Shown here one piece after another: positions 4,211 through 50,219 of a stretch of 64,000 nucleotides of DNA (position 1 is its first letter; each line of letters starts with the position of its first letter). Origin of the DNA: Octopus vulgaris (lineage: Eukaryota); contig OX597818.1 in the NCBI GenBank assembly GCA_951406725.2, forward strand, positions 51,894,001 through 51,958,000, in the 5' to 3' direction. A program made the translations under genes and the position numbers. The notes beneath the pieces are model-generated. The model did not search any database. It saw nothing but the letters and a program-made list of their open reading frames with translations, and had not been told where the DNA came from.

Positions 4211-4560
4211 CAGAGTGTTCGGGCTAAATTTGACAGTTTGCAAGAGAAGAAAATAATATCTTATCTAAGCATAAAAGTATTTTCTTTTCTAAATCAAAAA
4301 AGTATCAACTAGATATTGGGAGATAACAATTAAGTTAAGGTAACCGCTGTCAACTTCCACCACGGCTTCAAGACGGCTCTGAAACTTAGCGCATGCGTTA
4401 TTCGCTCTCTCCTTGCGAAGATTTTCGAAAATCTTCTTGATTATGGCCACCAGTTTGGCCTTGGTGTTGCAGTCAGAACGATTGACTGTTCACTAATGCA
4501 TCAGGATGATCCAGAAAAAGGAGACACAAAACATCGCCAAATTTAGCCCGAAAACCCTGT
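4211..4560 (-). pseudogene. Tc1/mariner transposase C-terminal remnant with possible TIR
   Basis: Minus strand reads ACAKFQSRLEAVVEVDSGYLN, resembling the mariner/Tc1 C-terminal RL..VV...G motif. TIR-like CAGAGTGTTCGGGCTAAATTTG at 4211. Confidence 0.6.
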
Positions 4561-4562
4561 AA

Positions 4563-5010
4563 GGCGGCGAGCTGGCAGATTTGTTAGCACGCCGGGCGAA
4601 ATGCGTAGCCGTATTTCGTCTGCCGCAACGTTCTGAGTTCAAATTCCGTCGAGATCGACTTTGTCTTTCATCCTTTCGGGGTCGATAAATTAAGTACCAG
4701 TTACGCACTGGGGTCGATGTAATCGACTTAATTCCTTTGTCTGTCATTGTCTGTCCCCTCTATGTTTAGCCCCTTGTGGGCAATAAAGAAATACGTAACG
4801 TTAACACACTGGGCGAAATGCTTAGCTGCATTTCGTCTGGCACTACGTCCTGAGTTCAAATTCCGCCGAGGTCGACTTTGTCTTTCATCCTTTCGGGGTC
4901 GATTAAATAAATACCAGTTATGTACTGGGGTCGATCTAATCGACTTAATCCCTTTGTCTGTCCTTGTTTGTCCCCTTTTTGCTTAACCTCCTGTGGGCAA
5001 TAAAGAAATA
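4563..5010 (+). mobile_element. SINE family M (Meta-domain-like), tandem dimer
   Basis: GGCGGCGAGCTGGCAGA head, GAGTTCAAATTC B-box-like motif, and GACTTTGTCTTTCATCCTTTCGGGGTCGAT...TACCAG central domain, twice. Confidence 0.85.
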
Positions 5011-22814: not shown

Positions 22815-23380
22815 CTTAGCGGTATTTCGTCTGTCTTTACGTTCCGAGTTCAAATTCCGCTGAGGTCAACTTTGCCGTTCATCCTTTCGGGGTCGATTAA
22901 ATAAGTACCAGTTATGCACTGGAGTCGATATAATCGACTCAATCCGTTTGTCTGTCCTTGTTTGTCCTCTCTGTGTTTAGCCCCTTGTGGGTAGTAAAAA
23001 AAAAAAAAAAAGGTATTTCGTCTGCCGCTACGTTCTGAGTTCAAATTCCGCCGAGGTCGACTTTGCCTTTCATCCTTTCGGGGTCGATTAAATAAGTACC
23101 AGTTACGCACTGGGGTCGATATAATCGACTTAATCCGTTTGTCTATCCTTGTTTGTCCTCTCTGTGCTTAGCCCCTTGTGGGTAATAAAGAATAGGTATT
23201 TCGTCTGTTTTTACGTTCTGAGTTCAAATTCGGCCGAGGTCGACTTTGCCTTTCATCTTTTTGGGAGTCAATTAAATAAATACCAGTTACGCTCTTGGGT
23301 CGATGTAATCGACTTAATTCCTTTGTCTGTCCTTGTTTGTCCTCTCTATGTTTAGCCCCCTGTGGGCAATAAAGAAATAA
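22815..23380 (+). mobile_element. SINE family M, tandem trimer
   Basis: Three ~185-bp units, each starting GGTATTTCGTCTG and ending in an (A)ATAAAGAA or poly-A tail. Confidence 0.9.
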
Positions 23381-23409
23381 ATATCTATGATTTGTGATAA
23401 TTTTAATAA

Positions 23410-23820
23410 GCGTGGCTCTGTGGTAAGAAGTTTGCTTCCTAACCATATAGTTCTAGGTTCAGTCCCACTGCTTGGCACATTTGGCAAGTGTCTTCTACTA
23501 TAGCTTCGGGCCGGGCACAGCCTTGATAGTAGATTTGGCTGACGGAAACTGAAAGAGGCCCATCATATGTGTGTGTGTGTGTGTGTATGTGTTTGTGTGT
23601 TTTTCTATGTGTGTGTTTGTGTTTGCTGCACCACCATCGCTTGACCACTGGTGTTCGTGTTTTTACGTCCCTTAACCGTAACTTAGCGGTTCGGCTAAAG
23701 AGAGTGAAAAAATTAGTAAAAAAATCTTTAAAAAGTAAATATTGGATCGATTTATTCGAATAAAATTCTTCAGGGTGGTGCCCCAGCATGGTCGCAGTTT
23801 AATGACTGAAGCAAGTAAAA
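23410..23820 (+). mobile_element. SINE family A, near full length, diverged
   Basis: Head, CORE-like box, internal (TG)n and CCAGCATGG.CGCAGT tail. Confidence 0.8.
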
Positions 23821-24017
23821 GGTAATAGGAGAAATAAATACATCAGTACTTGACTGGTATTTTATTTCGCCAACCTCGGAGGCTAAAAGTCAACTTTGAT
23901 CAAAAGATGAATTGTGCCACTTTTAACCTTGGAGAGTTTGGACCGAAAACGCAGAGAAGCGTAATTATATTTCGCATGGTATTTGATTAATATTTTCCCG
24001 TTTCTACCGTCACATCA

Positions 24018-24430
24018 CCTATTTCTTTATTACCCACAAGGGGCTAAACACAGAGGGGACAAACAAGGACAGACATAGGTATTAAGTCGATTACATCGAC
24101 CCCAGTGCGTAACTGGTACTTAATTTATCGACCCCGAAAGGATGAAAGGCAAAGTCGACCTCGGCGGAATTTGAACTCACAACGTAACGCAGACGAAATA
24201 CCTATTTCTTTATTACCCACAAGGGGCTAAACACAGAGGGGACAAACATGGACAGACATAGGTATTAAGTCGATTATATCGACCCCAGTGCTTAACTGGT
24301 ACTTAATTTATCGACCCCGAAAGGATGAAAGGCAAAGTCGACCTCGGCGGAATTTGAACTCAGAACGTAACGGCAGACGAAATACCGCTAAGCATTTCGC
24401 CCGGCGTGCTAACGCTTCTGCCAGCTCGCC
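24018..24430 (-). mobile_element. SINE family M, tandem dimer
   Basis: Two near-identical units; the flanks share CCGTCACATCACC (TSD-like). Confidence 0.9.
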
Positions 24431-24483: not shown

Positions 24484-24574
<91 letters not shown>

Positions 24575-24740
24575 AACAACTTATAAACAAGGGCAAAAGA
24601 AAAATTATTTCCATGCCAATATGCTGAGAACAGACTTTAAATCGTCAATTTCCACATTTCATTTTACATTCACTGTAGATACACATCGTGCTGAAATCGA
24701 GGAAAGCTAGCCAACAGAATTTTTAAAAAAAAGTTCGTTA

Positions 24741-24800
24741 TTTCTATACTGAATCAATTTCGGGATTAATCCTATGGATTCTTCCCTCTTAAGTAGTAAA
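24741..24800 (-). ncRNA. Hammerhead ribozyme, inverted copy with core mutation
   Basis: Minus strand: CTA-CTTAAGA (G5 mutated)-GGG..AATCC ATA GGATT..CCC-GAAA-TTGATTCAGT-A-TAGAAA. Confidence 0.65.
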
Positions 24801-24951
24801 TACGATAAAAAATTAATGAAGTACTTACTAGCACCCATCGAAAAAAGCACATGCACTTATGTGTACTTATGTGTACTTATGTGTACTCATGACTCTTGCT
24901 TGATCTTTTTTTATGGGTGCTAGTAAGTATTTCATTTATCTCTTATCGTAT

Positions 24952-25011
24952 TTTCTACTGAAGAGGAAAGAATCCATAGGATTAATCCCGAAATTGATTC
25001 AATATTAGAAA
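24952..25011 (+). ncRNA. Type I hammerhead ribozyme
   Basis: TTTCTA-CTGAAGA-GG(A)aag AATCC ATA GGATT aat CCC-GAAA-TTGA T TCAAT-A-(T)TAGAAA. Confidence 0.75.
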
Positions 25012-25292
25012 TAACGAACTTTTAAAAATAAATTCTGTTAGCTAGCTTCCCTCGATTTCAGCACGATGTGTATTTATAGTGAATGTAAAATGAAATGTGG
25101 AAATTGACGATTTAAAGTCTGTTCTCAGTATATTGGCATGGAAATAGTTTTTCTTTTGCCCTTCTTTATAGGTTGTTTGTAATTTTAACCTTTAAAGGTA
25201 TTTTAATATGCTGCCACTTTTGATGAAAGTTTTTTCTGAAAAAATTTTATCCTATATTAATATTATTATTATGATTATTATTATTAGTAGTA

Positions 25293-25359
<67 letters not shown>

Positions 25360-25801
25360 CAGGGCAATAAGGAGCACCAACTTAGCTAAAAATAGGAACA
25401 CAAACACACACACGCACACACATACATATACATATATACATACACACACACACAAATACAGATAAATGTGTGGTCGTGTGTGTATGTATATGTATATATA
25501 TATATTCATGTATATGATGGCTGACAACCTGTTTTCTGACGAAGGTGTCGCTGACTCTTAAACGTATGATTTTTATAAAAAGAAGAATGGAGATTGTCAA
25601 CAATAACGAAGAAATATTCTTTGGTTCGCTGAGGCTTGCACAACAACTCTCTGACCTTGTGGCATGAATCAGAATCAAGCCGAAGCAAGATATCTGATAT
25701 CGGAATAGGTTATCAGATGGGGATCGTAGTGAGCATTAAATGCACGCACGCACACACACTGACACACACCTATATATATATATATATATATATATATGTA
25801 A

Positions 25802-26262
25802 AAAATTATAAGTTAGGATATCTACGAGATACCACCATTCTGAAAATAGCAGCCATGATCTGACTCTAAAACCACCTTAATTGTCCATATATCAACACGG
25901 AGAGAAAACAAAGAGACAAGATGAAACTTGTATTCGTATGTTGTGCTTATATGTATATGTATTTATGTTTCTCTTCTGTGTGTATTCTACTGACGAGGCA
26001 AAGCATTCCTAAATGCAAAGCCAGAAATCCGGGATCTAGAATTATCCAGTAATTTTTTACTAGTTTCATCTTGTCGCTTTGTTTTCTCTCCGTGTTGATA
26101 TATGGACAATTAAGGTGGTTTTAAAGTCAGATCATGGCTGTTATCGTGGTATCTCGTAGATACCTTAATTTATAATTTTAATAATTATTACCTTTGAAGG
26201 TTATTTTTTCCATGCTAACCACTTGATAAAATCGTTATTTTATTTTTAGATCTTATCCTTAT
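25802..26262. mobile_element. Fold-back Penelope-like/retrozyme insertion in (TA)n
   Basis: Inverted arms ~25802-25928 / 26062-26179; hammerhead in the spacer; ~80-nt tail similar to 25180-25257. Confidence 0.8.
25984..26042 (+). ncRNA. Type I hammerhead ribozyme
   Basis: ATTCTA-CTGACGA-GGC aaa GCATT ccta AATGC aaa GCC-A-GAAA-TCC G GGAT-C-TAGAAT; predicted cleavage after AUC at 26036. Confidence 0.8.
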
Positions 26263-26330
26263 ATATATATATATATATATTATGCGCATACATGCGGAAG
26301 CACTTATGTATATTAACACACACATATACG

Positions 26331-26377
<47 letters not shown>

Positions 26378-26460
26378 TAACATATCCATCTAGTGTTGAT
26401 TGTCAGAATAAAAAGAACTCAATAACATAGTATAGATTAATAATATATTTCATGTTGAAT

Positions 26461-26840
26461 GTGGCGAGCTGGCAGAAGCGTTAGCACGCCGGGCGAAATA
26501 CTTAGCGGTATTTCGTCTGCCGCTACGTTCTGAGTTCAAATTCCGCCGAGGTCGACTTCGCCTTTCATCCTTTCGGGGTCGATTAATAGTACCAGTAATC
26601 GACTTAACCCGTTTGTCTGTCCTTGTTTGTCCCCTCTGTGTTTAGCCCCTTGTAGGCAATAAAGAAACAGGTAGTTCATCTGTCTTTACGTTCTGAGTTC
26701 AAATTCCGCCGAGGTCGACTTTGCTTTCATCCATTTCGGACTCGATAAATTAAGTACCAGTTGCGTACTGGGGTCGATCTAATCGACTGGCTCCCACCCC
26801 CAAAATCTCGGGCCTTGTGCCTAGAGTAGAAAAGAATATA
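26461..26840 (+). mobile_element. SINE family M dimer with two different tails
   Basis: Unit 1 ends AATAAAGAAA; unit 2 ends GGGCCTTGTGCCTAGAGTAGAAAAGAAT; ATATTTCATGTTG occurs on both flanks (TSD-like). Confidence 0.85.
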
Positions 26841-50176: not shown

Positions 50177-50219
50177 CTGATGAGATCCAACAATATCGAA
50201 ACATGCCAGTTGGTGTCAG
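50177..50219 (+). ncRNA. Hammerhead ribozyme core
   Basis: CTGATGA-GAT ccaacaat ATC-GAAA-CA tg CCA gt TGG TGT-C. Helix I pairing is not evident. Confidence 0.6.

Follow-up and report, generated by a model that had tools for sequence, protein, structure and literature searches.

Two fold-back elements, E1 and E2, lie side by side in the window, a 64,000-nt stretch of Octopus vulgaris DNA (contig OX597818.1, positions 51,894,001 to 51,958,000), and each carries a hammerhead motif whose helix II runs on through an internal loop into a distal hairpin. The hammerheads of Penelope-like elements (PLEs) are described as mostly minimal, without tertiary contacts; the initial annotation of this locus took the two neighbours for an extended variant whose helices all covary, and saw in this the mark of selection on RNA structure. 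The locus raises three questions: what the elements are, whether their proximity means anything, and whether the long helix II is a selected part of the ribozyme. Our preferred reading, to which we assign a probability of roughly 0.68, is that E1 and E2 are independent non-coding copies of PLE type, that they bear a long-armed hammerhead, were spread by Neptune-type machinery and dock loop against loop.

Both fold-backs and both hammerhead motifs are real: the arms lie at 24571-24845/24906-25181 (E1) and 25846-25932/26058-26144 (E2), the hammerhead cores at 24958 (+), 24793 (-) and 25990 (+) (Table 1), and the distal hairpins AATCC/GGATT (E1) and GCATT/AATGC (E2) are present as annotated. The E1 hammerhead originally quoted corresponds to the family consensus but occurs in neither arm, being a composite of two damaged ones: the direct arm combines an intact core with GGA/CCC in helix II and T25005 after the cleavage nucleotide, and the supposed GGG/CCC is found only in the inverted arm, beside a CTTAAGA core and a TTACTA helix I. 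A 3x3 A-rich internal loop, ascribed to both elements, exists in E2 after 3 bp, but E1 has 4 bp followed by a 2x2 AG/AA loop. The E2 hammerhead is as described except for A26023, which had gone unmentioned between helix II and GAAA; it matches its own family motif, has G-C at II.2 and sits between the E2 arms. Both helix III sequences are there, but the 1-nt loop drawn for them cannot close a hairpin, and as a monomer helix III folds into 4 bp or 3 bp around a 3-nt loop. With their private defects, both E1 arms are predicted to be dead, and in a read-through transcript they would trap each other as a duplex of ~280 bp; activity of the E2 copy is uncertain because of its extra A. The three hammerhead copies fold no better than shuffles (z = -1.42, -1.83 and 0.05), and Rfam models returned nothing of hammerhead type from the window, neither at the gathering score (0 hits) nor when the cut-off was relaxed to E<=10 (45 matches).

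Table 1. Features of the E1/E2 locus, in window coordinates.
Feature	Position	Strand	Basis
(TA)n target flank left of E1	24556..24573	.	sequence
E1 inverted 5'-truncated copy; stops at inner 3' terminus (+221 from C3)	24574..24855	-	
Hammerhead of inverted E1 copy; G5 of core altered (CTTAAGA), helix I mismatch; predicted inactive	24741..24799	-	
E1 direct copy, part of 491-504-nt head-to-tail unit; outer terminus TTTTATCCT	24872..25253	+	
Hammerhead of direct E1 copy	24952..25012	+	
E1 direct hammerhead, helix I	24952-24957/25006-25011		
E1 direct hammerhead, core	24958-24964		
E1 direct hammerhead, helix II-loop-hairpin; A.C mismatch at II.3	24965-24989		
E1 direct hammerhead, GAAA	24990-24993		
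E1 direct hammerhead, near-palindromic helix III	24993-25003		
E1 direct hammerhead, N17 (A)	25004		
E1 direct hammerhead, private extra T	25005		
E1 direct hammerhead, U1.7	25012		
E1 tail, inner to outer 3' terminus; resembles E2 tail	25180..25253	+	
E2 inverted 5'-truncated copy without hammerhead; stops at inner terminus (about +198)	25802..25932	-	
E2 direct copy, part of 479-501-nt head-to-tail unit; terminus TCTTATCCT	25928..26259	+	
Hammerhead of E2	25984..26043	+	
E2 hammerhead, helix I	25984-25989/26037-26042		
E2 hammerhead, core	25990-25996		
E2 hammerhead, helix II of 3 bp, AAA/AAA loop, 5-bp hairpin	25997-26022		
E2 hammerhead, family-wide extra A	26023		
E2 hammerhead, GAAA	26024-26027		
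E2 hammerhead, helix III	26027-26035		
E2 hammerhead, predicted cut after C	26036		
E2 hammerhead, U1.7	26043		
E2 tail, inner to outer 3' terminus (approximate start)	26179..26259	+	
(TA)n target flank right of E2	26260..26279	.	sequence

The two copies make a weak case for covariation in every helix: only 1/6 helix I pairs and 1/3 helix II pairs differ between them, and helix III cannot be scored pair by pair because the lengths differ, so that the locus itself yields about two clean compensatory pairs. The noted likeness of their tails stands up: the local alignment score is 52, and 5,000 shuffled versions of the E2 tail gave at most 51 (windows picked by eye). The bodies that join hammerhead to tail are dissimilar, 188/2,000 shuffles having matched or beaten their score.

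First-look searches of the 2.8-Gb genome returned 2,449 candidates for E1 and 2,515 for E2, the 30 closest copies diverging from consensus by a mean of 6.5% (E1) and 3.2% (E2), mostly through scattered private changes. Upstream, the longest copies continue into the 3' end of the same element and so reveal head-to-tail units with one hammerhead each, 491-504 nt long in E1 (4 copies) and 479-501 nt in E2 (3 copies). This unit junction was seen in 5 E1 and 3 E2 copies; a full dimer of either was found at none of 60 loci, and no reading frame was found upstream in either unit. Inverted 5' copies accompany 18/30 and 15/30 loci of the two families and tend toward an inner terminus (+221 in E1, about +200 in E2), with 13/16 inverted E2 pieces ending at +193 to +207. 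Direct copies reach an outer terminus (about +295 in E1, +286 in E2), often beside (TA)n; the E1 ends are bimodal, 13/30 at +219 to +221 and 11/30 at +294 to +302. E1 and E2 display 5' truncation, partial tandems, inverted 5' copies, a one-sided tail drawn from two 3' termini and a microsatellite target, an anatomy that matches the hallmarks given for PLEs (PMC8557442), and such tails are explained by two initiation sites (PMC11167929). Their tails of 75-90 nt exceed the 30-40 bp reported for PLEs. Judged by this sequence anatomy, E1 and E2 are non-autonomous Penelope-like elements of retrozyme type, and the "fold-back" is nothing more than the inverted 5'-truncated copy that ordinarily accompanies Penelope-like insertions.

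The 5' ends of genomic copies bear no pile-up that would mark a cleavage footprint, as 2/30 (E2) and 0/30 (E1) copies start within 4 nt of the cut site. The copies had been selected by the sequence downstream of that site, and the whole hammerhead was included in 24/30 (E2) and 21/30 (E1). Because copies extend through the hammerhead and do not start at the cut, we take the copying template to be uncut or circular RNA; the data fit either. Pieces of the families are also present in contigs of four sequencing runs (X1, X2, X3 and X7), which carry no information on ends, strand or circles. Over 24890-25250 these contigs contain A>G differences at 9 places in X1 and 7 in X3, both guessed to be RNA, versus 3 each in X2 and X7; those of X1 and X3 cluster at 25127-25138 within single contigs, and the excess could reflect editing of fold-back RNA or simply other copies.

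To place the hammerheads among their relatives, we turned to four search patterns, which gave 427, 175, 398 and 725 matches in the genome against 0, 28, 47 and 23 in reversed controls. Examination of 159 motif loci, less 11 duplicates, left 148 distinct ones; a filter on helices I and III, which 4.7% of shuffled flanks pass, retained 105 of these and rejected 43. The 105 fall into 23 clusters, related and not fully independent. The full design, comprising a helix II of mostly 4 bp, a small loop with 3' AA and a variable hairpin, recurs in 13/23 clusters, which supports the extended variant at the level of families; conservation of the extension is partial, however, since the other 10/23 have different or longer helix II forms. 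Cluster consensuses are paired in 23, 21, 23 and 17 of 23 cases at II.1-II.4, in 8, 6 and 11 at II.5-II.7, and again in 19, 14 and 18 at II.8-II.10, and II.3 is paired in 23/23 with four pair types. Variants of helix II include GGGA/UCCC, GGAA/UUCC, GAGA/UCUC, GCUA/UAGC, GUUG/CAAC, GCCA/UGGC and GGCU/AGCC. In most families the 4-bp helix is followed by a 2x2 or 3x3 internal loop, and the whole helix II region spans 25-46 nt, with distal hairpins of very different lengths and sequences. The idea that the arm holds a poly(A) signal was considered and rejected, as AATAAA and ATTAAA occur in 5/105 and 6/105 motifs and neither is present in the E1 or E2 arm of the window.

The rest of the motif is that of a type I hammerhead: a core CUGANGA...GAAA with A15.1-U16.1 and an RUH triplet (AUA in the E1 consensus, AUC in E2), from which the inverted E1 arm departs. 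Cores and RUH triplets are kept in 23/23 cluster consensuses, although the patterns impose the core and the parser imposes UH. Three covariation-supported helices surround the core, with helix I open; helices I and III served as the inclusion filter. Helix I pairs over 6 bp and then opens, with U1.7 in 19/23 clusters and A1.8 and A1.9 in 16/23 each; U1.7, which no search pattern imposes, is the least-changing column and is present in 12/13 clusters with the full design. The 3' A of loop II is kept in 18/23 clusters, partly because the patterns impose it: three of the four require the loop AA, and in the set free of that requirement AA occurs in 14/23 passing loci from only 3/10 clusters, 11 of the 14 belonging to one family. 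Loci L121, L132, L148, L129, L131 and L159 have a helix II of 5-7 bp that leads into other loops or into branched arms, and make up a second extension class. At L232/L233, a near-identical tandem of ~400 nt carries one extended hammerhead per unit, with G for U at 1.7, and forms a full dimer. The same pattern applied to viral contigs gave 0/68 distinct matches with both helix II and helix I (80 of at least 120 loci).

Covariation across families was assessed with a purpose-written tree-based null modelled on R-scape (96 rows after removal of 9 identical or short ones, 50 columns, 200 null sets), on an alignment anchored on the core; plain MAFFT, run on 14 representatives, put the hairpins out of register, and its alignment was discarded. 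Of 1,225 column pairs, the 11 that score best all belong to the predicted pairing, one of them in the distal hairpin, and II.2, II.3, II.10, I.1-I.4 and III.3 exceed the maximum of the 200 null sets; II.4 (E 26), II.8 (E 3.7), II.9 (E 35) and II.11 (E 74) are not significant. Scores in helices I and III and at II.2 are inflated because these positions are filter criteria or partly imposed. Within E1, 39 copies divide into subfamilies with G-C (21), A-U (15) or G.U (2) at II.3 and C-G (21) or U-A (11) at II.11, while 38 E2 copies contain no recurrent double change. Covariation is thus shown at the family level in helices I, II and III and for one distal-hairpin pair. Selection on RNA structure, as first proposed from the two copies, draws little from them and much from the other families and the E1 subfamilies; it acted on source elements, most sampled copies carrying scattered private changes.

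What the extended arm might do is suggested by its geometry. The internal loop lies at the canonical distance of loop 2, 4 bp from the core, with its 3' A facing U1.7; because an unpaired U follows helix I in 19/23 clusters, the usual tertiary contact is likely made by the internal loop in place of loop 2. For CChMVd(-), PMC2632901 describes this U-A contact together with an internal loop 2. A Neptune-type Penelope element, we suggest, supplies the enzyme that spreads E1 and E2. Transcription running through a partial tandem would yield an RNA that folds, and the short palindromic helix III would pair between two hammerheads as a double hammerhead, possibly with the help of a protein. In each, U1.7 in the internal loop of helix I would pair with the 3' A of its helix II counterpart, a contact known from other natural hammerheads, and the distal hairpin, needed only to close loop II, would be free to vary. 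Cleavage would then release unit-length RNA that may circularise, and target-primed reverse transcription, begun at one or other of two sites, would turn uncut or circular RNA into new copies. Docking is the least secure step of this scheme, as invariant bases cannot covary, and none of the loop I-loop II column pairs among the 1,225 is significant (best E 5.9). For the dimer, most families have a short, near-palindromic helix III, with a predicted self-duplex of -6.7 kcal/mol for the E1 consensus and -9.9 for E2 and a monomer pairing probability of <=0.03 in the window copies; a monomer helix this weak, beside such a self-duplex, fits double-hammerhead cleavage as in PMC4209133.

In its strongest form, which we hold only tentatively, the scheme extends to at least 13 non-autonomous Penelope families, in which two internal loops would dock, U1.7 of a helix I UAA bulge on the 3' A of a helix II NAA bulge, the slot for the hairpin being free. 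The hammerhead would be tertiary-stabilised, invisible to Rfam models and gated by dimerisation, and E2 would still cleave with its A inserted between C11.1 and G12. In E1, C11.1 directly precedes G12; the intervening A26023 of E2 is present in 14/14 copies of its cluster that pass the filter. As a wider variant the extra A found no support, no other family being evident among the 100 listed of 243 matches (control 113). One folded E2 copy with the majority G.U at II.2 is predicted to mispair helix II with the core (pairing probability 0.02).

The same elements could be read differently, with the helix II extension a non-catalytic part, either tolerated or kept as a folded handle for a partner protein, packaging or RNA stability, and with cleavage mattering little for spread. 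We regard this as unlikely, though it is the most substantial of the alternatives. It accommodates the wide variation of the distal hairpins across their 25-46 nt, the other loop types in 10/23 clusters and the smooth 5' ends around the cut site, and a lizard PLE needed no cleavage to insert in vitro (PMC11167929). It also draws on E2, which is abundant and young (mean 3.2%) despite an A.A at its fourth pair and a fixed extra A beside G12, and on this account the idea that cleavage is dispensable stays alive. Such a handle leaves unaccounted for a loop placed at the canonical 4 bp, opposite a 6-bp helix I with U1.7, where positions change least, as well as cores and RUH triplets retained in every cluster consensus (imposed in part).

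Under our preferred reading the enzyme would come from elsewhere in the genome. Neptune-type elements are abundant there, with an intact 781-aa frame (clade assigned by the cysteine linker, PMC8557442); those sampled have simple or degenerate hammerheads. In 40 GIY-YIG loci, of 150 listed and 6,136 candidates, no sequence was shared with E1 or E2 as part of an element, and tblastn with a Neptune protein and GIY-YIG pieces detected no RT or GIY-YIG frame joined to E1/E2 units. We infer the partner rather than identify it, because the 40 Neptune-type loci have no sequence in common with E1 and E2. Two apparent links, the hammerhead that follows L210 and the GIY-YIG fragment close to L084, turned out to be insertions of their own. 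L171 (1245-3590 and about 4530-4720) holds a young Neptune-type PLE with an intact 781-aa RT-GIY-YIG frame, a frame length found at many places, and its 3' end carries a hammerhead-like motif with a U3-A8 core. At L193, L207 and L209, 3' of the GIY-YIG frame, another Neptune-type family has a duplicated block of ~230 nt and no clear hammerhead.

That E1 and E2 are instead 5'-truncated solo pseudo-LTR remnants of an autonomous Penelope, and not non-autonomous families, we consider very improbable. Most copies are indeed 5'-truncated, and only top-scoring ones were examined; yet the longest lead back into the element's own 3' end, no frame is joined to the hammerheads, and the one nearby fragment is separated from them by (TA)n and unrelated DNA, so that for these two families the idea is largely refuted.

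Hardly credible is a single functional or host-adopted locus, with hammerheads complementing each other for example: the elements do stand ~550 nt apart with their direct copies in the same orientation, and 1/29 other E1 loci has an E2 piece within 1.5 kb, but the helices III differ and could not pair with one another as palindromes, both E1 arms are privately disabled, each element has its own (TA)n flanks, the spacer is single-copy, and new PLE insertions are reported to land next to older PLE copies (PMC6765202). E1 and E2 are independent decayed copies of two high-copy non-coding families; their adjacency is most simply explained by two insertions into a (TA)n-rich stretch, and their neighbourhood has no demonstrated meaning. 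The spacer at 25505-25740, tried as a possible repeat, was rejected on its single match in the genome. Within it, at 25536-25565 (+), a CTGACGA core precedes a short, imperfect hairpin and what looks like a damaged GAAA segment, which we attribute to chance or to an old relic because the surrounding stretch matches once.

PLE-driven non-coding repeats bearing hammerheads are already known; what is new here is the structural variant. Metazoan non-LTR retrozymes likewise have a non-coding head-to-tail unit with one type I hammerhead each, a weak palindromic helix III, low GC and a proposed dependence on PLEs (Cervera and de la Pena 2020, PMC7229834; Li et al., bioRxiv 10.64898/2026.07.22.740005). 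In contrast to retrozyme units of ~220-390 bp in arrays, those of E1 and E2 measure ~0.5 kb and form dispersed partial tandems with inverted 5' copies; a hairpin caps the internal loop that stands as their loop 2. Another known set of hammerheads resembles them in its many families per genome, compensatory changes, G10.1-C11.1, palindromic helix III region and likely dimer cleavage. E1 and E2 differ from that set in having no extra nucleotide 5' of helix II (E2 has one on the 3' side instead), a helix II interrupted at 4 bp, and a helix I of 6 bp that opens into an internal loop with U1.7. With Neptune clade PLEs and their non-autonomous derivatives (Craig et al. 2021, PMC8557442) they share microsatellite targets, 5' truncation, partial tandems, the inverted 5' copy and the one-sided tail, and they differ in the longer tail and the lack of a reading frame. 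The closest structural parallels are the CChMVd(-) ribozyme, whose internal loop 2 has a key 3' A, and that of Schistosoma, whose internal loop 1 has a 5' U, both using a reverse Hoogsteen U-A contact (Dufour et al., PMC2632901). Two small internal loops (2x2 or 3x3) in a genomic type I hammerhead form a combination absent from the available text of that paper and undescribed in the available sections of PMC3088659, PMC7936874, PMC6155905, PMC10085705, PMC6765202 and PMC6962438. The literature covered holds no description of such a hammerhead in elements of this kind; Lunse 2017 and Arkhipova 2017 may show similar forms.

The locus itself is decayed and its basic biology known. The families, with their fixed 6-bp/4-bp geometry, two internal loops and variable cap, are natural variants with which docking and cleavage can be probed, and they would also provide, at the end of helix II, a natural place to insert further RNA modules. 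In this one genome, hundreds to thousands of such motifs escape the standard models. Elsewhere in the window, two more hammerhead-like cores with a short helix II occur at 50177 and 60339 (+), the latter resembling a minimal PLE motif that is likewise present in the flanks of L036 and L044. Another very common repeat, of ~180 nt and in tandem and inverted copies, flanks the locus at 23000-24430 and 26460-26820.
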